Shown in pieces: positions 2-41,347 of a stretch of 58,233 nt of DNA (position 1 is the stretch's first letter; every line of letters starts with the position of its first letter). The notes beneath the pieces are model-generated. The model searched no databases. It was not told the origin of the DNA and saw only the letters and a program-made list of their open reading frames with translations. Origin of the DNA: an uncultured bacterium (GTDB taxonomy: Bacteria > Planctomycetota > UBA1135 > GCA-002748355); the NCBI GenBank assembly GCA_937858895.1, contig CALLZN010000362.1:1-58233 (forward strand). The letters run 5' to 3'. The translations under genes and the position numbers were made by a program.

Positions 2-373
2 GTGCGGGCGCCGGTGGTCGACGTTTTCGGCCGCGTCGGCGACCGCCTCTCGGGCTACCAGGGCTTGAAGGTCTTCGTCGACGACAAGCCAGCGAGCGTC
101 AACATCGGCATCGGCACGAACGGCAGCTTCTTCTTGACTGGTGTTCCGCTGCGCCAAGCCTCGCCGCCCGAGGCGACCGAGATCCGCGTCTTCGCCGAGG
201 ACGCCGTTGGCAACCGTGCCGGCAAGAGCATCTGGGTGACCTACGTAGCACCCCCGCCACTCAGTCCGACCATCGACATCCTCGACGGCAATGCGTGCGG
301 CAAGTGCTGCCGAAGCTTCTGCGCGTGCGCCTGCGCGATGGGCAAGGTCAACCCTTCGCGAAGAAGACCGTGA
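2..373 (+). CDS. 5'-truncated Ig-like adhesin fragment, probably the upstream part of the giant surface protein (frame break near nt 293)
   Basis: Open frame enters from the left edge. The translation ...IRVFAEDAVGNRAGKSIWVTYVAPPPLSPTIDILDGNA looks like a beta-sandwich adhesin segment. After about nt 293 this frame turns into Cys/Arg junk (CGKCCRSFCACACA), while the neighbouring frame picks up sensible Ig-like sequence. Confidence 0.55.
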   Translation: MRAPVVDVFGRVGDRLSGYQGLKVFVDDKPASVNIGIGTNGSFFLTGVPLRQASPPEATEIRVFAEDAVGNRAGKSIWVTYVAPPPLSPTIDILDGNACGKCCRSFCACACAMGKVNPSRRRP

Positions 374-11300: not shown

Positions 11301-11813
11301 GCGCGGCCGGTTGGCGGCGCGCGCTATCGCGTCGACCACTTCTATTCGGCGAACAACGACCGGGTGCAGACGGAGACGCAGAACCTCGACGAGAACGGCG
11401 CGGCCTATCCGCACGCGACGATCACGGACCGCGCCGACTTCGACATCTTGCACCAGTTGGTGGCGAGCGAACGCGATCGCACACGCGATGACGGCAGCGA
11501 CGCCGGTGTCGTGCGCAGCGAATACTACTACGACGCGCAGACGAACCGCATCGCGGTGCGCGCGCCGCGCCGCGGCTCGGGGCGCGCAGCGCGACGATCA
11601 CGACAACGCTCTACGACGCGCGCGAGCTGCCCTTCCGCAGCGTGCTCGGCGACAGCGATACGAACCCGGGCAACGCGCCGCCGAGCGACGCGGTTGTCAG
11701 CTATTCGAACTACGACGCCAACGGCAACCTGCTCGAGACCTCGGACGCCATCCGCCAGACGGTGCTCGGTGGGCCGACGCCGCGCTTCCCGGGGGCGGCA
11801 CCTGGTGACGTGA
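8391..11813 (+). CDS. RHS/YD-repeat polymorphic toxin, N-terminal part (lipoprotein signal, low-complexity linker, YD repeats); sensible sequence ends about nt 11565-11590, where the frame breaks
   Basis: The ATG at 8391 overlaps the adhesin stop (TGATG). Signal is MSLALPLRLRS...LSLLLTGC with the lipobox Cys at 8508-8510. YD-repeat strings include YDSNGCLARITDRTGQ, YEYDTNDDLIRVTSP, YEYTSEGLLKQVTHPRGN and YEYDTSGNVVAIVDPKGQ. The tail after ...NRIAVRAP is Arg/Ser/Thr junk. Confidence 0.85.
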   Translation: MSLALPLRLRSLVASSLRSGLSGVRPLAPCAALSLLLTGCGMDAPSESVRVSFAPIQGLTTTSHEVPEDGVPVPLGNEVVLRLERDGIITATERVRVDREGVQRIEVRDARGARNVTVEGVRVPSAGIAVRHVLQGPAATYAGGRVRVGVATTPPQFARIVEWFAAGASPSTGFGPSFTTVPPVAASGANAGPSSGPRSGTNGSSAGSSAGNSTGNASGGANSSASIQASVGVHYAPNPIAPVVYSVRWVSKPSKRDYFQATPIVRLYHEIRTDPPGYEHLVPWSYDTTGTATVSATQGLGKEFCIVRTNNRAHRLLCWRVQAGNLVDQGDFVNDLLDTPLQGRSEQPPKNRDCGPPAPASHSLPVNLANGELKFTVTDLRVPSRGFDFVWTRSYASRANFRGPLGYNWTLSYERRVFRIPGATSVSVVDGLQREDIYQKGAGNSYVSAAGYYDALVENQDSTFTQVDREGTRFDYDSNGCLARITDRTGQNSMSFLRNAQCNIEEVVDTQGRKYTLRYSDNSPTQVLTSITDFRGRTVRYEYDTNDDLIRVTSPIVVGTPTGNDFPSGKTTLYTYSQGKSDARLNHNLLSIVEPGYNVGNDPGQSKAMVTMTYATTSDASKIDFDRVIAERWGHDAGGPPSNPNVMVGGATTLAYSTNRGNDPGAPSLAFSRTIETTRNGNVRVHYFDRSLSEIRTITRTNRNVRVGEGDYRTDYEYTSEGLLKQVTHPRGNVTTMVYDEQNARREAQQNKLEVRRQVGAVGGGLTDLVTRYTYEPLYQQTRTITSPRGFPSGNVPLTANGKLDLGDASVARHTVTFVYDYQETSGVQAARGIPEIERIPEGLGDRNGAGDFSVGNLVETRFPTIATSGPNMGQVIAEKRTWNVHGQLIDRIDPTGRRKRHEYYASNNLPFDPSDLEGYVAAIYDDFTGLRLKTSYEYDTSGNVVAIVDPKGQRSETIYNALNQVVRTLARPVGGARYRVDHFYSANNDRVQTETQNLDENGAAYPHATITDRADFDILHQLVASERDRTRDDGSDAGVVRSEYYYDAQTNRIAVRAPRRGSGRAARRSRQRSTTRASCPSAACSATAIRTRATRRRATRLSAIRTTTPTATCSRPRTPSARRCSVGRRRASRGRHLVT

Positions 11814-14800
11814 CGCAGCACGTCTACGACGGCTTCGACCGCCGCGTGCAGACGACCGATCCCGAGGGCGCGGTCGTGACGCTCGGCTACGACTTCGACA
11901 GCAACCTCGTGCTCACGCGCCTCGTTGGCGTCGACTCGCACCGCACGGGCGCGACCCGGCGCACGCTGCAAGAATCGACCGCCGTCTTCGACGAGATCGA
12001 CCGCGTCGTGCGGCGCGAGGTTCGGCACTTCGATGCGAGCGGGACCAACGTCGGCGATGGCGTGCGGCAGACGACCACGAGCTACGACGCTGAGTCCAAG
12101 ATCCTCTACGTCGAAGACGATCGTGGCAACCGGACGACGACGACTTGGGACACGGCGGACCGCGTCATCGTCGTCACCGACGCGCTCCTGAACACGGTCA
12201 CGAACCAGTACGACGCCAACTCGAATCTGACGCTGACGACGCGCGTCGACACGTCGTCGGGCGTCGGGGGCAACGCCGAGACCTTCGTCACGAGCTATGC
12301 GTACGATGGCCTCGACCGTCGCACGCGCAGCGTCGATCCCGACGGGAGTGTGCACGAGTTCTTCTACGACGCGCGCGGCAATGTCGTGCTGAGCTCGGAC
12401 GCGGTGCGTGGTTCGGGCAACGCCGGCAACCTCGTGCGCTATCACTACGACGCGCTGAACCGCCCGTGGAAGACCGTGTCTTCGCTCACGAGCACGGGCC
12501 GCGGCGACGGCGTGGCGGCGGGTTCGATCACGACGACGACGCTCTACGACGACGACTCGCTCGTGGCCTCGAGGACCGATGACAATGGCACGCGCACGCA
12601 GTACCGCTACGACCGGCTCGGCCGCATGGTCGAAGTCGAGTACGGCGACCTGACCAAGCGCACGACGTCGTACAACCGCGACAACCAAGTGACGGCCTGG
12701 ACCGACCAGAACGGCACGGTCGCGTCGATGAGCTACGACGGCCTCGGCCGCATGTATCGGCGCAACGTCACGAAGGGCGTCGGCGTGCTCGGCGCGAGCT
12801 ACGAGGACTTCGGCTTCGATGCGCTCTCGCGGACGACCTTGGCGCAGAACGACGACGGCTTTGGCGCAACCGCGATGCGCTGCGAGTTCGAATACGACTC
12901 GCTGCAGAACATCGTGTCCGACCAGCAAGGGCCGTGGCGCGTGCGGAGTAGCTTCGACGGCATGTCGAATCGGACCGCGTGCACCTACCACGGGTCCTTC
13001 GGCAGCGGCGCGCGCGTCCTGACTTCGACCTACGACGAGCTCAATCGCCTCGCGACGATCTCCGAGGGCGCGACGCTCGTCGCGCGCTACGACTACAAGG
13101 GCCCCGCGCGCGTCGAGCGCCGCCGCCTCGGCGCGACGCCGACGCTGACCTGCACGACGAGCTACGACCTGCTGCCGCGGCCCATCGTCCTCGACCACCA
13201 AACGAGTGCGGCGACGGTGGCGCGCTTCGAGTACGGCTACGACCGCGCGCACCACCGGCTCTTCGAGAAGCGCGTCCACGACGCCAACCAAGGCGAAGTC
13301 TACAACTACGACTCGATCTACCGCGTCGTGCGCGAAGAGCGCAACGTCGACCTGACGAGCGTCGCCGCCGGCACGCGCATCGCGCCTGAGACCTACCGAA
13401 CGAACGACTGGCAGAGTCTTGCCTTCGACGGCGTCCAGAACCGCACGGCGACGATCGACACGGTGGCGAGCACGAGCACGACGACTTCGTGGGCGCGCCG
13501 AGCGTCGACCAACCAGTATGCGAGCCGCCAGGTCGGCAGCGCGGCCGCCGAACTCTTCACCTGGGACGCCAACGGCAACCTGACGGGCGACGGCGCGAAG
13601 CGCTACGCCTACGACTTCAAGAACCGCCTCGTCGAGGTCCGCGACAGGACGACGAGCGCCGTCCTCGTGCGCTACAGCTACGACGCGATGGACCGCCGCG
13701 CCTTCAAGGTAGTCGACCCGCTCGGCACGACGCCCACGACGACGCACTACATCTACGACGGCTCACGCATCCTCGAAGAGCGCGACCAAGGCGGCACCCT
13801 GCTCAAGAGCCACGTCTGGGGCGCCGCCCCCGACGAGCTGCTACAGGTCCAACGCGGCAGCGCCGCGACCGCGACCTACTGGGTCGCCGAGAACTCGCTC
13901 GGCAACATCGCCGCCCTCGTCGACGACTCAGGCACGACCGTCGAGCGCTACGCCTACGACGCCTACGGCAAGACCACGGTCACGCTGAACAGCAACACGG
14001 GCAACGAGTACCGCTTCCAAACGACCCGCCTCGACCCCGAGACGGGGCTCTACTGGTTCCGCGCGCGGCACTACAGCCCGGAGCTCGGGCGCTTCCTGCA
14101 GAAGGACCCGATCGGCATCTGGACCGACGGGGCGAACCTGGGGAATGGCTATGCCTTCGCGGCCAATGACCTGGTCAATGGCGTCGACCCGACGGGCATG
14201 TGGCCGGGCTGGCTTGACGACGCTTGGTACGAGGTCAAATCCGAAGCCGCATGGGCCGCTGATTTTGCAGGCCACTTCGTCGGCGGCGTCGCGAGTGACG
14301 TCGGGAACGCCGCGGCCGGACTCGGGCACGCAGTGTTGAACCCAGGCGAGACGATGGATCGCATCAAGTGCGCGGGTTCACGCATGTGGGACCGTGCCAT
14401 GACACGCGGCGAACTCGTCATGGGTGACGGGGGCAGCGTTCTCGATGGCCTAGGTCAGGTCTTCGGCTCGCTCGGTGGCGATCTCACCGGCATGAGTGGG
14501 ATGATCGACGCGTACATGGGTGCCGACATCGGCAGCTATGCCATGACCGGCGAGTGGAATCAGCTCAGCGACATCGAGCGCTGGCAGACCGGGCTGAATG
14601 GCTTCGCGCAGATGACGGGCCTCTTCGCCGGCGGCGGTACCGCTGGCGAAGCCCTGCATTTCAAGACACTCTACAGCGTACAGGACGCCGCGGACAGCGC
14701 TCGCTGGCTTCGCAATGGCGGAAGTCCGTTCCCCACAGCGGCCAACAAGGCACACTTGGGAGAGGGTCTTTACGCTTGGGAAACAAGGGCAAGCGCACGC

Positions 14801-15070
14801 AACTACCTCACACGCTTGGAAGGCAACGGAGCATCAGAACTGAGCATATTGCGCCATCGCGTAACACGCCGCGAATTGCGCAGCATGAACACAATGGACC
14901 TCACACGCCTACCAGATGCTGCACAGAATTCATGGTTGAATGACCACTCCCGCCTTTGGAATCCCAACGCTACATCCCACGGATTCGATCGTGTCCGACG
15001 CGGCACCCAGTTCGGAAACGAGAATTACTTCAATATCAATGTCTTGCAACAATTCGGACACAGTAGGTGA
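11642..15070 (+). CDS. RHS/YD-repeat polymorphic toxin, C-terminal part (open frame actually resumes about nt 11582-11597): YD repeats, RHS core end motif, variable C-terminal toxin region
   Basis: The frame reads ...ITTTLYDARELPFRSVLGDSD... upstream of the listed GTG. Many YD repeats are present (YDANGNLLETSD, YDGFDRRVQTTDPEG, YDGLDRRTRSVDPDG, YDRLGRMVEVEYGD...). The core ends with YRFQTTRLDPETGLYWFRARHYSPELGRFLQKDPIG...NGVDPTGM (DPxG at 14186-14200). About 290 aa of non-RHS tail follow. Confidence 0.85.
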   Translation: MLGDSDTNPGNAPPSDAVVSYSNYDANGNLLETSDAIRQTVLGGPTPRFPGAAPGDVTQHVYDGFDRRVQTTDPEGAVVTLGYDFDSNLVLTRLVGVDSHRTGATRRTLQESTAVFDEIDRVVRREVRHFDASGTNVGDGVRQTTTSYDAESKILYVEDDRGNRTTTTWDTADRVIVVTDALLNTVTNQYDANSNLTLTTRVDTSSGVGGNAETFVTSYAYDGLDRRTRSVDPDGSVHEFFYDARGNVVLSSDAVRGSGNAGNLVRYHYDALNRPWKTVSSLTSTGRGDGVAAGSITTTTLYDDDSLVASRTDDNGTRTQYRYDRLGRMVEVEYGDLTKRTTSYNRDNQVTAWTDQNGTVASMSYDGLGRMYRRNVTKGVGVLGASYEDFGFDALSRTTLAQNDDGFGATAMRCEFEYDSLQNIVSDQQGPWRVRSSFDGMSNRTACTYHGSFGSGARVLTSTYDELNRLATISEGATLVARYDYKGPARVERRRLGATPTLTCTTSYDLLPRPIVLDHQTSAATVARFEYGYDRAHHRLFEKRVHDANQGEVYNYDSIYRVVREERNVDLTSVAAGTRIAPETYRTNDWQSLAFDGVQNRTATIDTVASTSTTTSWARRASTNQYASRQVGSAAAELFTWDANGNLTGDGAKRYAYDFKNRLVEVRDRTTSAVLVRYSYDAMDRRAFKVVDPLGTTPTTTHYIYDGSRILEERDQGGTLLKSHVWGAAPDELLQVQRGSAATATYWVAENSLGNIAALVDDSGTTVERYAYDAYGKTTVTLNSNTGNEYRFQTTRLDPETGLYWFRARHYSPELGRFLQKDPIGIWTDGANLGNGYAFAANDLVNGVDPTGMWPGWLDDAWYEVKSEAAWAADFAGHFVGGVASDVGNAAAGLGHAVLNPGETMDRIKCAGSRMWDRAMTRGELVMGDGGSVLDGLGQVFGSLGGDLTGMSGMIDAYMGADIGSYAMTGEWNQLSDIERWQTGLNGFAQMTGLFAGGGTAGEALHFKTLYSVQDAADSARWLRNGGSPFPTAANKAHLGEGLYAWETRASARNYLTRLEGNGASELSILRHRVTRRELRSMNTMDLTRLPDAAQNSWLNDHSRLWNPNATSHGFDRVRRGTQFGNENYFNINVLQQFGHSR

Positions 15071-31611: not shown

Positions 31612-31630
31612 GCGACGAGCGCTGCGCTCA
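31609..31630. terminator. Short hairpin between convergent genes that includes both stop codons (weak bidirectional terminator candidate)
   Basis: tgagcg-acgagcgctg-cgctca: 6-bp stem, 10-nt loop. TGA of the HAD gene is at 31609-31611 and the minus-strand TGA of the GNAT gene at 31630-31628. No U-tract. Confidence 0.2.
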
Positions 31631-32599
31631 GAGCGAGACGAAGACCCAGGCAGCGCGCGCCGCCCGCCCTGCGCGCTCGGCCGTGCGCCTCGAAGCGTGG
31701 TTCGAAGCATCGATCGTGCCCCAGATCAAGGCCGGTCCGAAGCGCGCAGCGACTTCGCGAGCCAAGAGCCGCTGTGCCGCCACCGCGAGCCCACGACCCT
31801 GGTGTCGGCGAAGCAACACCTCTTCGATCACGGCTTGGCCTTCGAAGAGCCGCTCAGCGTCCTTCGCCGTACCGAGGACCCCGACGCGCTCCCCCGAAGC
31901 CGTGATGAAGGCGAGGACGCCCGTCTCGACGCAGTCTGCAAGCGCGTCCAGCTGGGCCGCGTGGACGCGTGAGACGAGCTCCGGCGCGTAGGCAGCCAAG
32001 TCCGCGTAGCCGGCCTCGACCAAGGCCGAGACTTCGTCGACGTCGCTCTCGGTGCAGACCTCGAGGGCGCAAGCCGGAGTGCTCGGCCCCGACGCCGCGA
32101 CCTCGTCGGCCCACCCGGCGTGAAAGAACTGGTCGACGACGTCCTCTGGCTGGAGCCGAAGCACGTCCGCCTCGAAGACACGCAGCCTTCGCGGCGCAAA
32201 GCGCGCATAGGCAGCGCAAGCCGCCTCGCAAAGCTCGGTCGCGACGCGGCGCCAAGGAGCCGTCACCGCGATCACGTCCACGAAGGGTTGCCTGACATCG
32301 CCACCGAAGAAGCGCAGCCCGATGAGGGCCGCTTCGCTAGCCCCGACCGGCACGACGCACTGCAGGTAGTCGCGAGCGTCGGCACCAGCGACCGGACAAG
32401 CAGCGTGGAAGCGACGTCCGAAGTCGAGGTCCGTGCAGCGCGCGAGCTGCTCGCGCACGAAGCAACGCGCGCGGCGCTCGAGCTGTCCTGCGTCGAGCCC
32501 CGCATGGCCCTCGAGCAAAAAGCGCGGTGCCGCGCGCAGCAGCACCGACAGCCACGCAGCCTCACGCTCGGCGCCTTCGTCCTTCAGGCTCTCGTTCAT
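31628..32599 (-). CDS. GNAT-family N-acetyltransferase (C-terminal GNAT domain; N-terminal half unassigned), last gene of the ParA/bilin-like operon
   Basis: GNAT motif A is EEVLLRRHQGRGLAVAAQRLLAREV, followed by ...GTIDASNHASRRTAERAGR. Same strand as the FDBR-like gene and 48 nt downstream of it. Confidence 0.7.
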   Translation of the reverse strand: MNESLKDEGAEREAAWLSVLLRAAPRFLLEGHAGLDAGQLERRARCFVREQLARCTDLDFGRRFHAACPVAGADARDYLQCVVPVGASEAALIGLRFFGGDVRQPFVDVIAVTAPWRRVATELCEAACAAYARFAPRRLRVFEADVLRLQPEDVVDQFFHAGWADEVAASGPSTPACALEVCTESDVDEVSALVEAGYADLAAYAPELVSRVHAAQLDALADCVETGVLAFITASGERVGVLGTAKDAERLFEGQAVIEEVLLRRHQGRGLAVAAQRLLAREVAARFGPALIWGTIDASNHASRRTAERAGRAARAAWVFVSL

Positions 32600-32647
32600 C
32601 GCGCTCTCGATGACCGAGCCGCCCCCCGCCGCGACGCCCTCAGGACC

Positions 32648-33379
32648 TCAAACGACCGACGGATCGAAGAGAACCCGCGGCACATAGGCGAGGGCAGCCG
32701 CACCGAAGAGCTGCTCGTAGTTGTTCGCCTTCGACCATAGCTTGCGCCCGTGCTCGAGGAAGCGTCGTTGCAGACGTCGTCCCTCGTCGCGCGACGCCCG
32801 CACGCCCGCACCGTGCAGACTCGCGACAAAGCTGTCGAGGTAGCGCGCCATCGTATGGTCGACGCTGAAGTCCTCGGGCACGACCCCGCGCACCGCGATC
32901 ATCGCTTCGCTCGCGAAGGGCGCGAGCCCATGCTCGAGCACGTCGCCGCTGTCTTGCAGCTCGAGCGCGAGGCCGCGCAGCTCCGGATACTCGGTGCTCG
33001 AACAGCAGATGTCGAGCAAGAGCGCGTCCCAAGTGTTGTCGATCGCAAGCGCTTCGAGGAAGAAGATCGGCGCGCTGCGGCCCGGATCGGGCAAGGCGAG
33101 AATCGACACGCTCTCGAAGGACCCGTCGAAGCTCGTGCCGCGCAGGATCGCAACCCGCGAGAGCGGGCCTTGGCCGACGAAGTGCCGTGCATCGACGCCG
33201 ACGCGCTCAGCGTTCCAGTCCGTCTCGAGCACCGCCTCGTCACTCGCGAGCGGGATCTCGCGCAGCGAAAGACCTTCGAGCAAGACCTCCTCGACGTGCT
33301 CCATGAAGAAGTCGATGCGCAGCGCGAGCAAGGGTGCGCTCGGCACGTAGCGCGCGTGCAGTTGGGTGGTCCCGGTCAT
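32648..33379 (-). CDS. Ferredoxin-dependent bilin reductase (FDBR, Fe_bilin_red)-like protein, catalytic residues apparently not conserved
   Basis: 243 aa, the FDBR size class. SILALPDPGRSAPIFFLEALAIDNTWDALLLDI resembles, from memory, the PcyA block [21 protein letters not shown]..AIADL. The C-terminus RRLQRRFLEHGRKLWSKANNYEQLFGAAALAYVPRVLFDP resembles ...[28 protein letters not shown]. The ATG at 33379 overlaps the ParA stop (ATGA). By-eye alignment only. Confidence 0.5.
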   Translation of the reverse strand: MTGTTQLHARYVPSAPLLALRIDFFMEHVEEVLLEGLSLREIPLASDEAVLETDWNAERVGVDARHFVGQGPLSRVAILRGTSFDGSFESVSILALPDPGRSAPIFFLEALAIDNTWDALLLDICCSSTEYPELRGLALELQDSGDVLEHGLAPFASEAMIAVRGVVPEDFSVDHTMARYLDSFVASLHGAGVRASRDEGRRLQRRFLEHGRKLWSKANNYEQLFGAAALAYVPRVLFDPSVV

Positions 33380-34161
33380 GCTTCGTCCTCGAGCAGTTCC
33401 TTGGCGATCTTGATGTAGTGTTGGGCCGGTATCGACTCGGGCTCCGACACGACGACCGGCAGGCCTTGGAGCAGCGCGTAGCCGACGATCGAGTCGTAGG
33501 GGATGGCGTGCTCGAACATCTTCGACCCGAAGCGATTGCGCAGGCCGCGCTCCCAGCGCCCGCCGATCTCCTCGCCTTGCGGAAGCGTGAGCACGATGCC
33601 GCGCAAGTTCGGTGCGAGGCCGACGCTGTCGAGGCGGCGGATGTCGTGCAAGAAGCCGGGAAGCGTGCGGTAGGAGAGCGGCTCGGCGCGGATCACGAGC
33701 AGGAGCTCCTTTGCATTCGCGAGCAGGTCACGCGACTTCGCGCCGGCGTAGGGCGGCGAGTCGACGAGGATGACGTCATAGGGCTCGTCGAAGTCACGCT
33801 CGGCGAGGGCGCGCAACCAGTCACCGAGCTTGGGATCGCCGCGGAAGTCGTCGGGCGTGCACGGCAGGACGTCGAGGTTGGGTTCGACATCGGTCAGGAT
33901 GGCGTCGCTCTTACCCTCGGCAGCGCGCTTCAAGCCGCAGCTGCGCGGAACCTCGAGGTGCAAGGACGCCGCGATGCTGCTGACCGGGTCGACGTCGACG
34001 ATGAGAACACGCTTACCGAGCTCGGCGCAGGCCACGCCGAGGTTGATCGTCGTCGTCGTCTTGCCGACACCGCCCTTCTGACTTCCGACCATGATGGTCC
34101 GGGTCGCTCGCTCTTCGAGGGCCCTCTGCTCGTGCAGTGAACGCGTCGCGCCGTGACTCAT
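33376..34161 (-). CDS. ParA/MinD/Soj-family P-loop ATPase (canonical deviant Walker A)
   Basis: IMVGSQKGGVGKTTTTINLGVACAELGKRVLIVDVDP (KGGxGKT, DxD). Walker B is YDVILVDSPP. The ATG at 34161 overlaps the stop of the upstream triple-ParA gene (ATGA). The listed ORF extension to 34464 is Arg-rich junk. Confidence 0.9.
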   Translation of the reverse strand: MSHGATRSLHEQRALEERATRTIMVGSQKGGVGKTTTTINLGVACAELGKRVLIVDVDPVSSIAASLHLEVPRSCGLKRAAEGKSDAILTDVEPNLDVLPCTPDDFRGDPKLGDWLRALAERDFDEPYDVILVDSPPYAGAKSRDLLANAKELLLVIRAEPLSYRTLPGFLHDIRRLDSVGLAPNLRGIVLTLPQGEEIGGRWERGLRNRFGSKMFEHAIPYDSIVGYALLQGLPVVVSEPESIPAQHYIKIAKELLEDEA

Positions 34162-37100
34162 GACAGTTCTCCTCGGCCATCCGCCGAAGCCGTGGGATTC
34201 TTCAAGATTGGATTCTGGTCGGCGCTGCCACTCGAGGCCGTTTGGACCATGGAGGCGAAGAGGCGCAAGAGCGACGCAGCACGCGGGTTGATACCGCAGT
34301 GCGCGACGAGGCCATCGCCGCAGTCGAGGTCGAGGACGACGCCCAAGCCGAGCAAACCGAGCTCTTCGCCGAGCGTCGCAGCTTGGGCGACCGCGCGGTC
34401 GAGATACAGACAGGCCTCCTGCGGACGTCCCAGCGCAAGCGCGAGGACGCCGGCGAGGAAGCACGCGTCCGACGAAGTCGAGTTCGCAGCGAGCACCGCG
34501 AGCGCGTCCGTATAGCGCCGCTGGAGGAAGGCACGCAGTCCGACGCCGAGCGCCCCGTGACCGTGACCGAGGAGCTCAACGACTTGGCCGGTCTCGAGCG
34601 AAGTCGCGGCGCGCGGTTCCGACACCGCCGCGCTCACGCTCGTCGCCGCGCTCGAGCAGACCTCGCTGTAGACGACGCCCTTCTGCACGAGTACGGTCGC
34701 TGCCGGCCTGGCGAGCTTGCCTGGCCGCAGCACGCGGCCTTCCTCGCACGGGAACTCCGTGCCGAGGGGCTCGAAGCGCAGACGCAAGCCCAAGGCCGCG
34801 ACTTCACTCTGTAGCCCGAGGGCTGCCGCCGCTCTGCGCGCATCGACCGTGAGCTCGAAGTCGTGGCGGATCCACCAGTCTTCCTCGAAGGACGTGATCT
34901 GCTCTTCGATCGTCGCGAGGACCTCGAGCAAGACGTCGACGGCCGGAGCGCGCACTTCACCGGTCGCGAGTTGCCGCGCCCAGCTCACGAGACCTTCACT
35001 CGCGCAAGCGGCGCGTGCGATCGCTTCGCTGCGCGCCGCGCCCGCGTCGAGCAGCGACATCAAGATGTGCAGGACTTGGCGACCGCCGCCGGTCGCGTCG
35101 AGCGTCTCGCGAGCGAGGTCGAGGATGCCGTCGCTGTCCTCGTCATCGCGCAGCGTCTCGAGCAGCTCGTGGCAGCGGCCGACGAGCTCGGAGAACTCCG
35201 CCCCACCACAGCCATCGAAGAGCACGAGGTCGACGCCATGCCAGCCTGCAAAGTGCTCGTCGTCGGGCCTTGCGAAGCGCAGCTTGCCCCCGCCACGCAC
35301 GCCCGGCGTCAATGCCGAACCGACGAGGACGACCTTGCGGCCGAGGATGCTCGTCATCCAAGCGACGATGAGGGCAGCGGCCGTGAGCGACGCCTCGTCC
35401 TCGGCGAGGTCGGAGACCGCGAGCACATAGGTATCGACTTCGTCGAAGGGCACCCGCGCTTGGTCGCCCTTCGCCTCGGTCGCGGCCTGGATGCCGAAGA
35501 CGCCCTCCTCGATGCGATCGGCGACGCGGCAGTAGACATCGAACGCGGCGCCTCGCGGCAGTTGCGCACCGGGCTGCATGGCCCAGTCCGCCACTTCCTG
35601 CTGCCACGGCACAGGCTCGCCAAAGCAAAGCTGACCGAGCTGCTGACGAATCTCGGGCCAGATTCCAGCCTGCAGCGGATCGGTCGCGCAGTAGAGATTG
35701 ACGAGGACACCGAAGTGATCGAAGCGCGCCCCGCGCGCCTCGGCGGCCCGCAGGGCGTGGATCGCCGCTGGGATCGTGCGGATGGCGAGCGGGTCGGGCA
35801 GCACTGTCAGCAGAACAGCGTCCGATGCGTCGAGGACAGCGTCGCAGCCCTGCTCGAGCAGCGGCGGCGTGTCGACGAGCACGAGATCGGGCGCGAAGTC
35901 GATGCAGTCCGCCATCGCCGTCATCCGTGAGGCAACACGCACGTTCGAGGCCGCCTCGATCAGGGTCGTCCCGTCGCCGGGCGTCGCGCTGAAGAGCTGA
36001 AGGGTCCGCGTCGCACGCGCATCGAGGACGAGGACGCGGCGCCCCCGCTCACCGAGGATGGTTGCGAGCGCGAGGGTCGCGACGCTGCGGCCGGTGCCGC
36101 CCTTGTGGCTCGAGAGCGAGAGGACGAAGGGCTTCGTGCCCGCGCGCTCACAGCCAAGCGTGAGCTCGGCGAGGAAGGCCGCGCCGCCTTCACCGGCCGA
36201 CCTGGTGTCGACCAGTTCGGAGCGATCGGCAGCGTATCCGCGCGTGGACGACGCGGCGACGCCCCGCGCGCCTGCGGTCTCGATGTCGGGCTCTTCGAAG
36301 ATGCGCGGCGCGAGCTCACGGGCAAGACGCGCATAGGCATCGCCCGCCGCACCCTCGGGCACGGGCCCGCCGAGCAGGCCCCATTCGACGAACTCGTCCT
36401 GCAAGGGAATCGGTGTCTCGAGGCAGAAGTCGCCGAGACGCTCGCGCAGGTCGCGGACCATGTCGCGCTGCAACGGATCGTCGGCGTCGTAGACCGAGAC
36501 GCAGATACCGAGGAGTTCGAGTTCGGCGTTGACGCGCTTCGCGTCGACGAGGGCGCGCGTAGCACCCGGGATCGTGCGGAAGGCCAAGGGATCGGGCAAG
36601 GTCGTCAGCAGCACGCCATCGGCGCGTTCGCAGAGCTCGCGCGATGCCGCCTCGAAGATCGGCGGCGCGTCGACCATAACGAGGTCGTAGCGGGCGTCGT
36701 CAGCGTCGGCCGCGGTCTGCCCGAGGGTGACGCCTGGGAAGAGTTCGCGCTTCCCGCCCTGCGAGAAGAGGTGCAGCGTCTTCGTGACGTTGGCGTCCAG
36801 CAAAAGGACGCGCTTCCCGAGTGCCGCGAAGGCCGCGCCGAGCGCGAGGGTCGTGGTCGTGCGCCCCGTGCCGCCCTTGTGGCTCGCGACGACGAGGCGG
36901 TACGGCGCGCGGCGCTGCGGCCCGCGTTCGCGCTCGCTCGAGAGGAGCGCCACCTCTTCGGCCGACTCCTGTGGAGCCCGCTCCGTAGCGTCTGCGACTT
37001 CGAGCCCGAGGTCGGCGGCGAGCTCCTCGACGAGGCGGTCATGGGCCTTGCCATAGGCGCCGCGTGGCAGCTCGCCCTTGGCGTCCATCGACCAGTCAGC

Positions 37101-37652
37101 AACGTCCTTCTGCCACGGAAGCGGAGGCTCGAGACAGAGTTCGCCGAGCCGCGAGCGCAGCGTGTCGAGCATCTCGAGCTGGAGCGGATCGTCGCTCTTG
37201 TAGATCGAGACGACGATGCCGAGGAAGCTCAAGTCGTCGTGCAAGGCGAGCACTTCCTTGAGCACACTCGTCGCGCCCGGGATCGTGCGGATCGCGAGCG
37301 GATCGGGCAGGGTCGTCAGGATGACGCCGTGCGCGCGACCGATGAAGGCGTCAGCGCCGCGATCGAAGAGCGGCGGACAGTCGAGGATGACGTAGTCGAC
37401 GCCGAGGCGGGCAGCCTCGCCGGGTCGACCCGTGCCGACGTAGACGCTCGGCAAGAGCTCGCGCTCTTCGATCGGAGCACCTTGCTTGTCGGCGCCGAGC
37501 AAGAGCTCCAAGGTCGGCGTGACGTTGCCGTCGATCAAGAGAACGCGCTTGCCGCGGTCGGCGATGGCGCGAGCCATGCCGATCGCCGTCATCGTGCGGC
37601 CCGTGCCGCCCTTGTGGCTCGCGATCGCGAGGACGTAGGGGTGTGGGCTCAT
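34158..37652 (-). CDS. 1164-aa protein with three tandem ParA/MinD-like domains carrying SHKGGTGR(T/S) P-loops, a fourth degenerate ParA-like domain and a helical C-terminal region
   Basis: D1: YVLAIASHKGGTGRTMT...GKRVLLIDGN...DYVILDCPP...ILTTLPDPLAIRTIPGA. D2: YRLVVASHKGGTGRTTT...GKRVLLLDAN...YDLVMVDAPP...LLTTLPDPLAFRTIPGA. D3: FVLSLSSHKGGTGRSVA...GRRVLVLDAR...PDLVLVDTPP...LLTVLPDPLAIRTIPAA. D4: YVLAVSDLAEDEASLTAAAL...GRKVVLVGS...VDLVLFDGCGG (P-loop lost). An identical 19-mer, gtgccgcccttgtggctcg, occurs at 37603, 36868 and 36094. The ATG at 37652 overlaps the upstream stop (ATGA). The listed extension to 38012 is junk. Confidence 0.85.
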   Translation of the reverse strand: MSPHPYVLAIASHKGGTGRTMTAIGMARAIADRGKRVLLIDGNVTPTLELLLGADKQGAPIEERELLPSVYVGTGRPGEAARLGVDYVILDCPPLFDRGADAFIGRAHGVILTTLPDPLAIRTIPGATSVLKEVLALHDDLSFLGIVVSIYKSDDPLQLEMLDTLRSRLGELCLEPPLPWQKDVADWSMDAKGELPRGAYGKAHDRLVEELAADLGLEVADATERAPQESAEEVALLSSERERGPQRRAPYRLVVASHKGGTGRTTTTLALGAAFAALGKRVLLLDANVTKTLHLFSQGGKRELFPGVTLGQTAADADDARYDLVMVDAPPIFEAASRELCERADGVLLTTLPDPLAFRTIPGATRALVDAKRVNAELELLGICVSVYDADDPLQRDMVRDLRERLGDFCLETPIPLQDEFVEWGLLGGPVPEGAAGDAYARLARELAPRIFEEPDIETAGARGVAASSTRGYAADRSELVDTRSAGEGGAAFLAELTLGCERAGTKPFVLSLSSHKGGTGRSVATLALATILGERGRRVLVLDARATRTLQLFSATPGDGTTLIEAASNVRVASRMTAMADCIDFAPDLVLVDTPPLLEQGCDAVLDASDAVLLTVLPDPLAIRTIPAAIHALRAAEARGARFDHFGVLVNLYCATDPLQAGIWPEIRQQLGQLCFGEPVPWQQEVADWAMQPGAQLPRGAAFDVYCRVADRIEEGVFGIQAATEAKGDQARVPFDEVDTYVLAVSDLAEDEASLTAAALIVAWMTSILGRKVVLVGSALTPGVRGGGKLRFARPDDEHFAGWHGVDLVLFDGCGGAEFSELVGRCHELLETLRDDEDSDGILDLARETLDATGGGRQVLHILMSLLDAGAARSEAIARAACASEGLVSWARQLATGEVRAPAVDVLLEVLATIEEQITSFEEDWWIRHDFELTVDARRAAAALGLQSEVAALGLRLRFEPLGTEFPCEEGRVLRPGKLARPAATVLVQKGVVYSEVCSSAATSVSAAVSEPRAATSLETGQVVELLGHGHGALGVGLRAFLQRRYTDALAVLAANSTSSDACFLAGVLALALGRPQEACLYLDRAVAQAATLGEELGLLGLGVVLDLDCGDGLVAHCGINPRAASLLRLFASMVQTASSGSADQNPILKNPTASADGRGELS

Positions 37653-38092
37653 GCTTGCCACCGCAGTGTGGACATTACCGTCGCGACGCTCGGTGCGTGC
37701 AGGCTCTCGAGGTCGCCGCTGTCGCCCATGATCCTGTCGCTCGGGGCGCTGTCGCTCGGGGCGCCAACGGCCTGCACGATCTTGCTCTCGGTCTGCGGCC
37801 GCCCTTCGGCAAAGGCCATCCAGTCGATCGAGTCGACGTGGCGGCGTGGAGCCGAGCGTGGCTGGACGACGCGGCCGCGACGCGCAGAACGGGCCGCTGG
37901 CTGCCCACGCTTGCGGTCCCGGCCATCCTGCCCGTCGGCGCTCCTGCTCGTACTGTCGCTCACGCTGGTGCTCGCGGTCTCGACCTCGTCTTCGCCGTCC
38001 CAGAGCAGCCAATCGAGGAAGCGTCGCAGCAAGCCGCGACGACGATCTTCGTGTCGAAGGCCTTCGTTGCCCATGTCCTTGTCGCTCGTCAT
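37649..38092 (-). CDS. 147-aa low-complexity, probably disordered protein (operon member)
   Basis: Sequence is MTSDKDMGNEGLRHEDRRRGLLRRFLDWLLWDGEDEVE...DSIDWMAFAEGRPQTESKIVQAV.... My hand codon read shows mostly G/C at third positions in this frame. The alternative frame (the N-terminal extension of the ParA ORF) is Arg-rich junk. The stop overlaps the next ATG (ATGA). The start lies 4 nt after the upstream stop. Confidence 0.55.
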   Translation of the reverse strand: MTSDKDMGNEGLRHEDRRRGLLRRFLDWLLWDGEDEVETASTSVSDSTSRSADGQDGRDRKRGQPAARSARRGRVVQPRSAPRRHVDSIDWMAFAEGRPQTESKIVQAVGAPSDSAPSDRIMGDSGDLESLHAPSVATVMSTLRWQA

Positions 38093-38096
38093 CGGA

Positions 38097-38729
38097 TCAC
38101 GCACGCGGGTCCGCGCTCCCTCGGATTCGAAGCAAGACGTCATCGAGCTTCGCGCTCTGCGGCGCTTCGACCGCAACGAGGCGCTCCTTGGCCGTTACGA
38201 GCAGGCGCTGCGCTGCCCCTCGACTTGTTGATGGCGCATCCTCGATGTGCACGGCATCGAGCTCGGTGCGCGCGAGCGCCTCCAAGGCCTCGACCACGAC
38301 TCCGCCAACGAAGGCGCTGCACGGCGGCGACTCCCCACAGCTGACGTCGACGAAGACGATGCCCTCGTCCGCGAGTTCGATGTCCAGACTCACTTCACCG
38401 AAGCCGCAATCGCGGCACTGTCCCGCGAGGACCTGGCGAAACTGGACCAGGGCTAGGGCTTCGATCGGTGCTTCGTAGCAAGTCTCGACGACCGTGCAGA
38501 GCTCTTCGAAGAAGTTCTTTCCAAAGGCCCGCCCCATGTCGAAGACCGGGCGCGGTGAAGGCGAGGCGTCGGCGAGCTCAGCGAGCCACGCCTCGAAGAT
38601 GGCCCCCTCGAAAGACAAGAGGCGCAAGCCCGAGTCGGTGCGCAGGCAGCCGCTCACGTCGCGGCTCACGCGCTCGTCGAGCCTCGGCGGGTAAGCGCGG
38701 TGCAGGGGTCGCTTGCGCAGCTTCATCAT
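38097..38729 (-). CDS. V4R (4-vinyl reductase/BchJ-type, Bet3-like) domain protein
   Basis: LRLLSFEGAIFEAWLAEL...FDMGRAFGKNFFEEL...CGFGEVSLDIELADEGIVFVDVSCGESPPCSAFVGGVVVEALEALARTELDAVHIE fits the V4R pattern (R.l...G...G......GwG.....d......v.v......c.f..G...g.l.......v.E). The ATG at 38729 overlaps the globin stop (ATGA). Confidence 0.55.
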   Translation of the reverse strand: MMKLRKRPLHRAYPPRLDERVSRDVSGCLRTDSGLRLLSFEGAIFEAWLAELADASPSPRPVFDMGRAFGKNFFEELCTVVETCYEAPIEALALVQFRQVLAGQCRDCGFGEVSLDIELADEGIVFVDVSCGESPPCSAFVGGVVVEALEALARTELDAVHIEDAPSTSRGAAQRLLVTAKERLVAVEAPQSAKLDDVLLRIRGSADPRA

Positions 38730-39229
38730 CGTGCGACCCGCGCGTCTTCGAGTTGTGAGAAGTCACCGAGCACCATCACTACCTCGTCGAGGTAGGGCTT
38801 GGCGAAGTCGAAGGTGATGCCCGACAAGGCATGTTGCAGCTCGTCGCGCAGAGTCCCGTAGACATCACGCACGAAGGACGGCGTGAAACCGAGGGCGCGC
38901 AGCACCTGGCGGTGTGGGATCAAGAGACGGTCGCGCAAGTACTGGATATCGTCGATGAGCACGGCTTGGGCAACACAACGAAGCGTGAGCTGCAGGTCGC
39001 GGCTCGTGTGCTCGTAGCCGTGCTCGTGGAAGTCATCGAGCTGCGGGTAGTGCGAACGCACGGTGCGCATCGTCGCGTCCAAGACCTTGGTCTCGCAGCG
39101 TTCGATCTCCTGCTCGAGGGCGATGCGGCAGTGCACCGAACCCGCATACTCGAGGATGCGCTCGCGCTCGCTTTGCAGCAGGTAGCGTCGATCGCAACCG
39201 CGGACGATCTTCGAGATCTTGTCGTTCAT
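38726..39229 (-). CDS. Phycobiliprotein-like globin (Phycobilisome-protein family fold) lacking the canonical bilin-attachment Cys
   Basis: 167 aa, the phycobiliprotein size class. CDRRYLLQSERERILEYAGSVHCRIALEQEIERCETKVLDATMRTVRSHYPQL parallels ADAEARYLSPGELDRIKSFV..G.RR..IA..........I....N.LF.K.P... EHTSRDLQLTLRCVAQAVLIDDIQYLRDRLLIPHRQVLRALGFTPSFVRDVYGTLRD parallels ..[29 protein letters not shown]..LG.P......... (allophycocyanin/phycocyanin recalled from memory). The R-D of the CxRD motif is kept, but Cys is replaced (TSRD). Confidence 0.6.
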   Translation of the reverse strand: MNDKISKIVRGCDRRYLLQSERERILEYAGSVHCRIALEQEIERCETKVLDATMRTVRSHYPQLDDFHEHGYEHTSRDLQLTLRCVAQAVLIDDIQYLRDRLLIPHRQVLRALGFTPSFVRDVYGTLRDELQHALSGITFDFAKPYLDEVVMVLGDFSQLEDARVAR

Positions 39230-39233
39230 CGCA

Positions 39234-39521
39234 TCACCAAGAGATCTTGTGCAAGTAGTGTTGGTCGCGGTCTTCGGGCAGCTTGGTCGAGGCTTCGACT
39301 TCGTCGACCGCGAGCGCCGGCGCAGCTGCCTGCCCCGTCCACGGCAGACCGGCGAAGAAGGACCCGACGGCGACGCGTTCTCTCGAAGAGCGCAGCGTCG
39401 TCGTTGACGCGCGCGATGCGGCGCTGCCGGTCGACGCGGCGCGCATGCCGCGCGCAGGTCCCAAGAGGTCGAAGAGCAAGCCCGTCTCTTCGAGGTCGTC
39501 GAGGAAGTCACCGTCGTTCAT
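39234..39521 (-). CDS. 95-aa small protein with acidic N-terminus (operon member)
   Basis: GGAGGA lies 5 nt upstream of the ATG at 39521 (minus strand reads cgcggaggacaacgATG). Sequence: MNDGDFLDDLEETGLLFDLLGP...FFAGLPWTGQ...EDRDQHYLHKISW. Third codon positions are mostly G/C by hand read. It starts 14 nt inside the 3' end of the upstream gene and ends 4 nt before the globin ATG. Confidence 0.5.
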   Translation of the reverse strand: MNDGDFLDDLEETGLLFDLLGPARGMRAASTGSAASRASTTTLRSSRERVAVGSFFAGLPWTGQAAAPALAVDEVEASTKLPEDRDQHYLHKISW

Positions 39522-40134
39522 CGTTGTCCTCCGCGTAACTCGCCGTGTGGCCTGTGATCGCGCTGTCGAGCCCCTCGCCGAGCAGGACCGCCTCGCGGAG
39601 CGTCGCCATGTGCAAAGGGCCGCCGATCGCGATCGTCCACAGCTCGGCGTCGGCGTCGCTGCACGACACGTCGACCGCAGCGAGCTCACGTGATGCCAGC
39701 GACGAAAAGAACGCAGCGAGCTTGCCCGCGACGTGCTCGACGAGGACCCGCGCCGACGCATGGTCGAAGCCCCCGACGCGACCACGCGCGAGGAGGACAC
39801 CGAGCCCTGCGTGCTGCCGTTCGACGGTCCATGCTCCCAAGCCACGCTCACGCAGCTCGAAGAGCCAGTGTTCGACGACGAGATCGAAGGGCAAGTCCGC
39901 GACGGCGCGCCCGTGCAGCTCTTCGAGCACACGACAAAAGGCCGGCATCGTCTTCTCGCCTAGCGCGCGACCGACGCGGTGGAAGGCCGCCTGGCCGCTC
40001 TTCTCGTCGCAGCAGCGCGCGATGGCTGCCGGCAGGCGCGCGTCCATGAGGCGGCGCTCGCCCGTCTCCGTCCGCACGGCGAGCGCGTTCGACGCATCGA
40101 TCAAGAGAGCCGAGTAGCCATGGATCTCGCTCAT
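39508..40134 (-). CDS. V4R-like domain protein (second copy, more divergent)
   Basis: RRLMDARLPAAIARCCDEKSGQAAFHRVGRALGEKTMPAF...RERGLGAWTVERQHAGLGVLLARGRVGGFDHASARVLVEHVAGKLAAFFSSLASRELAAVDVSC follows the same R.l...G...G...GlG.w.ve...........G.l......l....v...C pattern as the 38097..38729 product. The ATG at 40134 overlaps the kinase-like stop (ATGA). Confidence 0.45.
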   Translation of the reverse strand: MSEIHGYSALLIDASNALAVRTETGERRLMDARLPAAIARCCDEKSGQAAFHRVGRALGEKTMPAFCRVLEELHGRAVADLPFDLVVEHWLFELRERGLGAWTVERQHAGLGVLLARGRVGGFDHASARVLVEHVAGKLAAFFSSLASRELAAVDVSCSDADAELWTIAIGGPLHMATLREAVLLGEGLDSAITGHTASYAEDNDERR

Positions 40135-41195
40135 GCTTCGTCCTCCGGCTTGCGCTGCGTGCGTTGACCCTTGCGAAAGCTCTGGGTGAGCTCGGCGCGC
40201 ATCGCGTCGAGGGCCGAAGCGGTCGCCTTGGTCGAGACCTCGGCGGCGTCGGCAGGACGCCGCGTCGACTTGGTGCTGCGTCGCCGCTCTTGGTCGCGCG
40301 CGTCGGTCGGAAAGCCGCCGTCGCTCTCGTCGAGCCAGTCGAGCTTCTGATCGATCTCGGCGCGGACACCGCCCTGCATCGACGCATCCTCGACGTCGCC
40401 GAGCTCCTCGGGCGCGTCTTCGATGGCCTCGTGCAGCATGCGACCCACCACGAAGAGCAACTCGGAGTGGCACGAGAAGCGCGTGCTCGGATCAAAGGCC
40501 ATGCAGCGCTCGAGCACCGTGACGAGCTTCGGCGCGTGACCTGCCTGCAAGAGCTTTCCGAACTGGTCGAAGCTCTCCGCCGCCGTGCGCGGGCGATGAG
40601 GCTCGAAGCCCGCGATCATGCGGAAGAGCAAGGAGCCGAGCGCATAGACTTCGCTGGCCACCGTCACCGGCCCGCTGTCCAACTCCGGTGCACGGTAACC
40701 CGAAGGCGTTCCCGGCAAGCCCCAGTCGAGCACGGTCACGTGGGCGTCGGCGCCGAGGAAGACGTTCTGCGCGCAGAGCCCCGGATGCAGGAGACCCGCG
40801 CTGCCGACCGCGGCCAGGATGCCGGTGACCTCGAGGACGACGCGCAGCGCCGATCGCGCCTTGAAAGCGCCGATGCCCGCCGCAAACGACTCGAGCGTCG
40901 AACCGTAGAGCGGCGCGAAGATCGCATGCGCGAAGGGCTCGAGCCCCCCACCCGTCATGTGGACCATGCCTCGCAGACCGCCACGCGCGAGGATCGGCGC
41001 GTGGGTGTCGAACCAGGCTATGCCTGGGTCCTCGAGCGTCTTGAAGATGCAAACATCCAGGCTCTTCTTGTCGACGGCGAGGAAGGCCTTGCCATGGGCA
41101 CCGAATTCCGTGCACGCCGCGAAGCGGAGGCCGAGCATCTCGCCTCCCTCGGTCGGCACAGCAGTTCTTGCTTCGTCTTGGATCTGCGTGGACAT
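40131..41195 (-). CDS. Ser/Thr protein kinase-like pseudokinase with charged, disordered C-terminal tail (alternative SD-supported start at 41138)
   Basis: Kinase subdomains are recognisable: VCIFK (VAIK-like Lys), LLHPGLCAQNVFL in place of HRDLKPxNILL (catalytic Asp replaced by Gly), VLDWGL (DFG-like), YRAPE (APE), SEVYALGSLLFRMIAG, DPSTRFS. GGGAGG lies 4 nt upstream of the internal ATG at 41138 (gagggaggcgagATG). No SD precedes the ATG at 41195. Confidence 0.7.
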   Translation of the reverse strand: MSTQIQDEARTAVPTEGGEMLGLRFAACTEFGAHGKAFLAVDKKSLDVCIFKTLEDPGIAWFDTHAPILARGGLRGMVHMTGGGLEPFAHAIFAPLYGSTLESFAAGIGAFKARSALRVVLEVTGILAAVGSAGLLHPGLCAQNVFLGADAHVTVLDWGLPGTPSGYRAPELDSGPVTVASEVYALGSLLFRMIAGFEPHRPRTAAESFDQFGKLLQAGHAPKLVTVLERCMAFDPSTRFSCHSELLFVVGRMLHEAIEDAPEELGDVEDASMQGGVRAEIDQKLDWLDESDGGFPTDARDQERRRSTKSTRRPADAAEVSTKATASALDAMRAELTQSFRKGQRTQRKPEDEA

Positions 41196-41347
41196 GCGCT
41201 CGCGTGGGGCAAAGGCCCTTCGCGTCTTCGGCCAGGTCGTAAAGACGACCGAAGCCCTTCATGCGCCATGTTTCGCGGCTCGATGCCAGCGCGGGATCGA
41301 CGGCAGCTCGCCGTGGTCGCGCGGCGTTGCGACGGCCGCGCCGTCGC

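Follow-up and report, generated by a model that had tools for sequence, protein, structure and literature searches.

Why should genes for a phycobiliprotein-like globin, two V4R-like proteins and a relative of the ferredoxin-dependent bilin reductases (FDBRs) run head to tail with genes for ParA-type ATPases? The question is raised by ten genes on the minus strand at positions 31628-41195 of contig CALLZN010000362.1 (assembly GCA_937858895.1), a stretch of 58,233 nucleotides, called the window below, from an uncultured bacterium of the Planctomycetota. Clusters that combine a bilin-biosynthesis-associated globin (BBAG), V4R proteins and an Fe-S protein hold the closest relative of the phycobiliproteins and are the birthplace of the reductase PcyA, and they occur both in heterotrophs and in cyanobacteria. 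Here, we argue that the backbone of the Planctomycetota string, namely g1 to g5 and g9 in the list below, descends, with strong divergence, from the pre-PcyA/BBAG cluster of heterotrophs (slr0144-slr0152 in cyanobacteria), a conclusion that is well supported; g6 may belong to the backbone as well. The combination of V4R, globin, FDBR and kinase is therefore already known. What is new is that ParA, a giant pseudo-ParA and a GNAT-like protein have been added, that heme oxygenase and ferredoxin have gone, and that FDBR and kinase have degenerated.

The ten genes and the region in front of them, listed from the 5' end of the string, are:

g1, 40131-41195, minus strand: 354-aa pseudokinase with a Hanks-type Ser/Thr kinase fold and an acidic, disordered C-terminal tail
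g2, 39508-40134, minus strand: 208-aa divergent V4R-like protein, at the position that the first V4R protein has in pre-PcyA clusters
g3, 39234-39521, minus strand: 95-aa acidic low-complexity protein, C-terminus ...HKISW
g4, 38726-39229, minus strand: 167-aa phycobiliprotein-like globin of the BBAG type
g5, 38097-38729, minus strand: 210-aa divergent V4R-like protein (the second V4R)
g6, 37649-38092, minus strand: 147-aa disordered protein with an Arg-rich N-terminal helix (RRGLLRRFLDWLLWDGEDE), C-terminus ...VMSTLRWQA
g7, 34158-37652, minus strand: 1164-aa triple tandem ParA-like protein with a helical C-terminal region of about 440 aa
g8, 33376-34161, minus strand: 261-aa canonical ParA/Soj-type ATPase
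g9, 32648-33379, minus strand: 243-aa degenerate FDBR-superfamily protein
g10, 31628-32599, minus strand: 323-aa protein, conserved N-terminal domain followed by a GNAT domain at the C-terminus
Presumed promoter region upstream of g1, 41196-41347, minus strand: 152-nt intergenic sequence

Most of these labels go back to a preliminary description of the window that was made without database searches. Its assignments of the globin, the ParA, the triple ParA with altered motifs, the pseudokinase and the GNAT protein agree with Pfam matches and motif alignments, while the FDBR-like and the two V4R-like labels are upheld by remote methods only (a profile chain for g9, hhalign and fold for g2 and g5). 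Its author knew of no such assemblage, and that view survives in part: the V4R/globin/FDBR/kinase set had been reported (PMC10151467, PMC11863333) and occurs in the loci L095 and L098 described below, so that novelty is confined to the ParA and GNAT-like genes and to the way in which the enzymes have degenerated.

The backbone and its pre-PcyA counterparts

Rockwell, Martin and Lagarias (2023) described a cluster made up of an FDBR, a BBAG, a pair of V4R proteins and an Fe-S protein, often accompanied by heme oxygenase (PMC10151467); in some pre-PcyA clusters the heme oxygenase is encoded elsewhere in the genome (PMC10151467, PMC13446030). The Pfam-positive FDBRs nearest to g9, P0008 and P0011, lie in clusters that read Fer2, V4R, a protein of 107 or 111 aa, Phycobilisome globin and V4R; after these genes, the two clusters differ in how they arrange Fe_bilin_red, Pkinase, heme oxygenase and a second globin. 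In L095/L096 the full string is Ras/Arf-like GTPase, 191-aa protein, 240-aa protein, 105-aa protein, Fer2, V4R, 107-aa protein, globin, V4R, globin, FDBR, Pkinase and heme oxygenase, and the L098 cluster is similar. Genes g2 to g5 of the window repeat the order of V4R, small protein, globin and V4R seen in these clusters, FDBR-superfamily and Ser/Thr-kinase-fold genes stand in the same string, and the genes overlap tightly in both. For each of g1, g2, g4, g5 and g9, the best match in L095 is the expected counterpart.

The globin g4 matches the Pfam family Phycobilisome (PF00502; E 1.4e-13, 51.6 bits against a cutoff of 22.2), and in BLAST it is 28% identical (60 bits, E 1.7e-15) to the globin that lies between the two V4R genes of L095. 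Against allophycocyanin in the PDB it scores about 20 bits, with an end-to-end alignment to allophycocyanin alpha. The chromophore site reads T-S-R-D and is aligned to C-L-R-D of allophycocyanin alpha, and the Cys of the CXRD motif is absent; the globins of the L095 cluster also lack it. The protein is 85% identical to its copy in the relative L005, and its dN/dS is 0.02 when compared with the sister strain L100 (both genomes are discussed below).

The two V4R-like proteins, g2 and g5, are paralogues of each other. Neither has a Pfam V4R match at E<=1, and their whole V4R-like family has none at E<=10; searches of PDB sequences with shallow profiles gave no match, and neither did NCBIfam. The family profile nevertheless aligns with Pfam-positive V4R proteins (hhalign 97.6%, E 2.8e-12), and BLAST connects both proteins to V4R proteins of L095 (E 4e-7 for g2, 2.5e-5 for g5). 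An AlphaFold2 model of g5 (pLDDT 71, pTM 0.71) finds Bet3/TRAPP, BcsD, H-NOX, the V4R protein MJ_1460 (2oso) and the MopR/PoxR sensor domains in Foldseek at E values from 2e-3 to 2e-2, matches which we take to be the fold group that includes V4R. Recognised as V4R-like through such remote methods only, g2 and g5 have both lost the V4R cysteine motif. The V4R-like proteins are 29-36% identical in L005, with the fast-evolving g5 at 29%. Word-indexed homologue searches with g9, g5 and the V4R-like alignment returned only the queries themselves and close relatives. A separate observation concerns g5 and its neighbour g6 (37649-38729), which are 85% and 73% identical, respectively, to their copies in L100 (L100:3640-4732; dS 0.23-0.34), while the neighbouring genes are 98-100% identical at the amino acid level (dS 0.01-0.15); by this comparison the pair appears to be a local divergence or recombination hot spot within the operon.

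What of the small proteins? In L095 and L098, the place that g3 has between V4R and globin is taken by proteins of 107 and 111 aa, with which g3 has in common a phi-x-W-[DST]-G motif and a C-terminal Trp motif; hhalign of g3 with those small proteins is not significant, covering 12-13 motif columns. The g3 gene is kept in L005, L011 and L100. In the same three relatives, g6 has conserved termini and a variable middle; at the C-terminus it has a motif like that of two small proteins (105 and 87 aa) in L095 and L098, with hhalign covering 12 columns only (E 0.02).

Pfam recognises the kinase fold of g1 below threshold (Pkinase, E 8e-6, 25.8 bits against a cutoff of 31.7), and the protein aligns across the entire kinase domain with the active kinases of the L095 and L098 clusters (E 2e-6 for that of L095). 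HPGLCAQN replaces HRDLKPEN, DWG replaces DFG and the alphaC region is deleted, with the beta3 Lys (VAIK) retained. The same motif changes are found in L005, whose copy is 68% identical, and in L008. Judged by these residues, g1 is a pseudokinase that has lost its catalytic Asp.

The product of g9 has no Pfam or NCBIfam match at E<=1, Fe_bilin_red (PF05996) gives none at E<=0.1, and PDB sequences yielded no match to a shallow profile. With a profile built from g9 and a 60%-identical homologue, a search of 1.84 billion protein representatives yielded 15 proteins; of the 15 sequences then scanned, namely g9 and 14 of its profile matches, 10 proved positive for Pfam Fe_bilin_red. The joint profile of g9 and its relatives reaches the PcyA structure 2g18 at E 5e-21, and g9 matches the FDBR of L095 at E 9e-14. 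This chain of profiles to Pfam-positive FDBRs and PcyA structures places g9 in the FDBR superfamily. Within it, g9 forms a clade with P0002 and P0005-P0007 that is separate from other FDBRs and in which none of the five members has a Fe_bilin_red match. The positions equivalent to PcyA H74, R149, N219 and K221 are lost in the clade and retained in most of the Pfam-positive relatives. At the position of PcyA D105 the clade has Glu, Glu, Glu, His or Ser, with Glu in g9 and His or Ser in P0006 and P0007. In PcyA, these residues are catalytic or propionate-binding. Four of the five clade members have the N-terminal motif T-x-L-H-x-R-[YH]-V-P-S-x-P.

Among the Pfam-positive FDBRs found elsewhere, P0010 adjoins a MerR-B12 gene (pre-2 type) and P0014, which has Glu at the position of PcyA Asp105, adjoins prophage genes; no ParA gene was seen beside either, and the contig of P0017 is only 1.2 kb long. 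The stand-alone P0014 (L102:7738-8451, and also in L103) lies between smpB and a phage-like block (Phage_P22_Y8K6, AAA_24, DUF669) and may be prophage-borne.

The window departs from the pre-PcyA clusters in several ways. Those clusters have two globins, a ferredoxin and a heme oxygenase, whereas the window has one globin and neither of the other genes; its FDBR, V4R and kinase proteins are so divergent that they no longer reach the Pfam thresholds, and key residues are missing from them; and ParA, the triple pseudo-ParA and the GNAT-like gene are inserted, where L095/L096 has instead a Ras/Arf-like GTPase module upstream. The preliminary description had seen no heme oxygenase in the operon, and wider searches agree, with ferredoxin absent too: Pfam finds neither Fer2 nor heme oxygenase in the operon or the scanned flanking open reading frames (ORFs) of the window, and tblastn (with L095/L098 queries for Fer2) finds neither in the window or five related loci. 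A literature search found no association of ParA or MinD with BBAG clusters.

The cyanobacterial relative, slr0144-slr0152 of Synechocystis sp. PCC 6803, known as a 'photosystem II assembly protein' operon, ends in the gene for the kinase SpkG, whose catalytic activity is unverified (PMC11863333), and the Slr0144-Slr0149 products form a physical complex (PMC9880817). Globin, V4R and kinase are combined there as in the window, without an FDBR or heme oxygenase. Ferredoxin 5, proposed as the substrate of SpkG, is still encoded in the cyanobacterial cluster, which is linked to photosystems; the window has no ferredoxin, has ParA, and belongs to a non-cyanobacterial metagenome-assembled genome (MAG).

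The GTPase module of L095/L096 deserves separate mention. In L096:1836-8723 and L095:5-8858, four genes overlap head to tail with the string that runs from Fer2 to the kinase. They encode the Ras/Arf-like GTPase (Pfam Arf, E 6e-8), proteins of 191 and 240 aa, for which a PDB sequence search gave no match, and the 105-aa Trp-tailed protein. The fold of V4R proteins is that of Bet3/TRAPP, and TRAPP acts as an exchange factor for Rab. For this reason a functional link between V4R proteins and NTPases, represented by the GTPase in L095/L096 and by ParA in the window, is a lead, and the presence of the GTPase module in true pre-PcyA clusters hints that the link may be general.

One operon-like unit and its ParA module

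All ten ORFs run from an ATG start to a TGA stop with no internal stops when the intervals are translated, and the coordinates, overlaps and gaps given for them in the preliminary description were reproduced exactly. Five junctions are 4-nt ATGA overlaps: g1/g2 (40131-40134), g4/g5 (38726-38729), g6/g7 (37649-37652), g7/g8 (34158-34161) and g8/g9 (33376-33379). The overlap of g2 and g3 is 14 nt (39508-39521), and the gaps measure 4 nt between g3 and g4 (39230-39233) and between g5 and g6 (38093-38096), and 48 nt between g9 and g10 (32600-32647).

Are all of these ORFs genes? Long spurious ORFs are abundant in the window because of its G+C content of 67%. Half of the operon proteins (five of ten) have Pfam matches. 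All ten genes recur in the same order in L005, a relative that is 60-86% identical, and all ten are present in the near-identical strain L100; in L011, whose contig begins within g3, at least the last eight (g3 to g10) are kept in order. In the comparison with L100, dN/dS is below 1 for nine of the ten genes, and g10 has too few changes to judge. Pfam matches, recurrence in the three relatives and dN/dS together argue that the ten ORFs are real genes and not chance ones. Gene callers differ from the preliminary description only at g1 (335 versus 354 aa) and g6 (155-164 versus 147 aa); the 354-aa start of g1 is favoured because the alternative internal Met is Leu in the alignment with L005. No membrane-spanning segment is predicted in any of the ten proteins. 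That the ten genes make up one operon-like unit is well supported.

The 152-nt region upstream of g1 is the only sizeable same-strand gap between the inositol monophosphatase gene and g1. It has no match to the sigma-70 consensus, and promoter and terminator scans were uninformative. A stretch of the form GCCGA[AT]GACGCGA[AG]GGGCC[TC]TT is partly conserved between this region (41196-41347) and L005:2045-2163, in a comparison where coding sequence is only 60-86% identical, and may be a regulatory site.

The ParA protein proper, g8, has intact motifs (QKGGVGKT in Walker A, VDVDP in switch I, ILVDSPP in Walker B). Its best solved relative, over the full length, is Thermus thermophilus Soj (1wcv, E 6e-28); the McdA structure 6noo matches at E 3e-7. 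No other protein of the cluster is as well conserved as g8 (86% identity in L005 and L011, 81% in L009) and the globin (85%). Inspection of the sequence found no Fe-S ligand cysteines of the NifH or Mrp type (CxxC) in g8. Two other cysteines, C75 and C101, are invariant in three aligned homologues down to 81% identity, at positions unlike those of the NifH/Mrp cluster ligands.

In its neighbour g7, three ParA-like domains at about aa 1-225, 246-465 and 496-725, with Walker A reading SHKGGTGR[TS], precede some 440 helical residues with a weak TPR signal. Pfam CbiA matches it in three stretches (E 6e-37), and the NCBIfam model NF047398, 'KGGVGR-motif variant AAA ATPase', scores 85.3 bits (E 6.5e-24), below its cutoff of 90 bits. 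In all three domains, Arg stands in place of the P-loop Lys and switch I lacks its second Asp, as also in the L005 copy (66% identical). The KGGxGR P-loop is shared with NF047398 in each domain, and g7 adds the triple tandem and the 440-aa tail; a literature search for the function of NF047398 found none. A fourth, degenerate ParA domain at about aa 721-980 was considered and rejected (hhalign 0.5%).

The last gene, g10, matches Pfam Acetyltransf_3 (28.4 bits against a cutoff of 25.4), and its acetyl-CoA motif R-x-x-G-x-G, here RHQGRG, is invariant in five homologues.

Some ParA/MinD-family systems position cargo with the help of disordered adaptors, as McdA/McdB does for carboxysomes. The window resembles such McdA/McdB-type systems in that a canonical deviant-Walker-A ATPase, g8, stands beside small disordered proteins, g6 and g3, whose conserved parts are limited to a charged N-terminus and a Trp-containing C-terminus. 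It differs from them in having no carboxysome or other known cargo genes, and g8 is nearer to Soj than to McdA. We know of no positioning system whose partner consists of three tandem ParA domains with Lys-to-Arg changes.

Occurrence in relatives

The gene set recurs as a neighbourhood in other genomes, with all ten genes in L005 and L100 and at least g3 to g10 in L011. Among 185,579 species-representative genomes, a close homologue of g8 was found in only two Planctomycetota MAGs, one with the full set and the other with g3 to g10 on a contig that begins inside g3. The full set is known from one narrow clade with shared flanks (the window, L100, L005 and L011).

Partial sets are also instructive. 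In L009, a g7 homologue, of which the contig covers no more than the third ParA-like domain and the C-terminal region, is followed by ParA, FDBR-like and GNAT-like genes, and then by different downstream genes; the FDBR-like protein is 29% identical and the ParA 81%. The P0006 contig has ParA and then an FDBR-like gene. Both contigs are too short to reach the place where a globin gene would lie. The FDBR-like start overlaps the parA stop by 4 nt in the window, L005, L009 and the P0006 contig, and it is kept in contigs with an FDBR-like identity of only 29-41%. In L008:8703-11569 no more than three of the genes are present, those for the pseudokinase (here extended by 100 aa at the N-terminus), the FDBR-like and the GNAT-like protein, followed by a gene for a 1925-aa UvrA-like protein; the upstream flank is that of the window (peptidase S13, inositol monophosphatase), and the seven-gene globin/V4R/ParA block is absent. 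A GNAT-like gene follows the FDBR-like gene in all contexts seen (L005, L006, L008, L009, L011 and L100). By gene order, then, the constant pair appears to be FDBR-like plus GNAT-like, usually with predicted translational coupling to ParA. A metagenome scan with the ParA alignment was uninformative on distribution, returning generic P-loop patterns and unrelated ParAs of about 30% identity (L015-L094).

Readings of the cluster, and other features of the window

How might a BBAG backbone and a ParA module work together? With the pigment and redox genes gone and the globin and ParA strongly constrained, the comparison suggests that the core globin/V4R job is structural or sensory rather than biosynthetic, and perhaps requires spatial organisation. 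The reading that we favour, and to which we give about an even chance, is that this degenerate descendant of a pre-PcyA/BBAG cluster encodes a ligand-binding globin/V4R complex organised by ParA, acting as a sensor or scaffold and not as a bilin-synthesis pathway. The products of g2 to g5 would form a soluble heteromeric complex comparable to that of Slr0144-Slr0149, which would bind a bilin or another hydrophobic ligand independently of local bilin synthesis; binding is proposed to be non-covalent because CXRD has become TSRD in g4. Cycling between an ATP dimer and a monomer, g8 would distribute, anchor or assemble the complex in the cytoplasm, and g7 might pair with it as a non-hydrolysing scaffold or regulator. 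The points of contact with g8 could be short conserved peptides, namely the N-terminal Arg-rich part of g6, the N-terminal motif of the g9 clade, or both. The preliminary description had likewise proposed a tetrapyrrole-binding assembly governed by ParA, which is compatible with the data and which, we infer, is to be preferred.

Several points weigh against this favoured reading. The sole link of ParA to the globin/V4R complex is co-linearity. Because L008 keeps the pseudokinase, FDBR-like and GNAT-like genes alone, the middle block must be dispensable for those three. The genomes with the full set are relatives with shared flanking genes, so their agreement largely reflects one inheritance event. 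That g3 and g6 are homologous to the small proteins found in pre-PcyA clusters lacks statistical support (12-13 motif columns, E about 0.02), and the likeness is kept here as a resemblance of position and motif. The AlphaFold2 model of g9, made from two sequences, is of low confidence (pLDDT 39.7). Finally, some catalysis by g9 could persist, given that PcyA Asp105 corresponds to Glu in g9, and the genome may have a heme oxygenase gene at another locus.

The last two points lead directly to an opposite reading, in which the locus serves a working bilin pathway: g9 would be an active FDBR with Glu109 as proton donor, heme oxygenase and ferredoxin would come from elsewhere in the genome, g4 would be the acceptor globin and the ParAs would be accessory. 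The change from Asp105 to Glu is conservative and also occurs in the Pfam-positive FDBRs P0009 and P0014, some pre-PcyA clusters do have their heme oxygenase elsewhere (PMC10151467, PMC13446030), and g4 keeps the Arg-Asp of CXRD while the L095 globins, too, lack the Cys. It is nonetheless difficult to reconcile an active enzyme with a clade that has lost H74, R149, N219 and K221, that has His or Ser at position 105 in P0006 and P0007, and in which all five members fail to match Pfam Fe_bilin_red. Ferredoxin and heme oxygenase are missing from the cluster in every relative seen and the partner kinase is dead, and we consider a working pathway unlikely. Perhaps, instead, the genes are merely transcribed together, as independent modules: a globin/V4R complex, a ParA/pseudo-ParA pair with a cargo of its own, and an FDBR-like/GNAT pair. 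L008, with its pseudokinase, FDBR-like and GNAT-like genes and none of the other seven, looks like such a module on its own, as do the ParA and FDBR-like (and, in L009, GNAT-like) genes of L009 and the P0006 contig, with the reservation that these contigs end before the globin region; and the full set occurs only in one narrow lineage with shared flanks. Against this, the modules are joined by start/stop overlaps at g6/g7 and g8/g9, and the g8/g9 overlap is kept at 29-41% FDBR-like identity. Nor does the ParA block stand at the edge of the ancestral cluster: it is enclosed by V4R/g6 on one side and the FDBR-like gene on the other. Independence of the modules is accordingly judged improbable.

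A different role for the ATPases would be that of SIMIBI-type assembly or cofactor-delivery factors (compare NifH/BchL, CooC, Mrp/ApbC and Get3/ArsA) that replace the ferredoxin, with g7 as an ArsA-like pseudo-oligomer. The ParA genes do appear in the lineage without Fer2, the tandem ATPase domains recall ArsA, and secondary matches of g7 and g8 include NifH, BchL/BchX, CfbC, ArsA/Get3 and ApbC. Those matches, however, span only the P-loop region (about 30-55 residues), while the best full-length match is Soj; g8 has no CxxC or NifH-type cluster cysteines after Walker B; and the Lys-to-Arg P-loops and missing switch I Asp of g7 argue against ATP-driven work, which makes cofactor delivery quite doubtful. 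An anti-phage defence system composed of a kinase, ParA-like ATPases and an acetyltransferase is so improbable that we reject it. PADLOC relates g1 to the PD-T4-6 and mad6 kinases and g7/g8 to PDC-M28B, and the NCBIfam MADS6 kinase model matches at E 4e-10, but these are generic kinase and P-loop matches far under the cutoffs (38.7 versus 460 bits). Six of the ten proteins have no defence match, the flanks are syntenic housekeeping genes, and the backbone is clearly that of a BBAG cluster.

The favoured reading, a globin/V4R complex organised by ParA, can be extended into a bolder proposal, which in its entirety we would call a long shot. In a presumably non-photosynthetic planctomycete, an ancestral complex of bilin globin and V4R proteins, sister lineage of the phycobiliproteins, would have become a ParA-positioned body or sensor in the cytoplasm, in which the former reductase serves as a non-catalytic ParA partner through its N-terminal peptide, the triple pseudo-ParA is a scaffold on which g8 cycles, and the V4R pair regulates P-loop NTPases (ParA here, the Ras/Arf-like GTPase in pre-PcyA clusters). 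The finding has its limits in a narrow distribution and in uncultured organisms known from sequence alone. It nevertheless raises questions that can be addressed with cloned genes: does a TSRD globin bind bilin, does a dead FDBR bind ParA, and can a triple ParA with Lys-to-Arg changes act as a scaffold?

Two further features of the window lie away from the operon. At 14-22 kb the G+C content falls to about 0.63, and two large ORFs there (751 and 974 aa) have no Pfam match. Three ORFs on the plus strand at 295-15070 are very long (2698, 1179 and 1142 aa), and the RHS repeats and DUF6531 of the last two suggest a polymorphic toxin locus.

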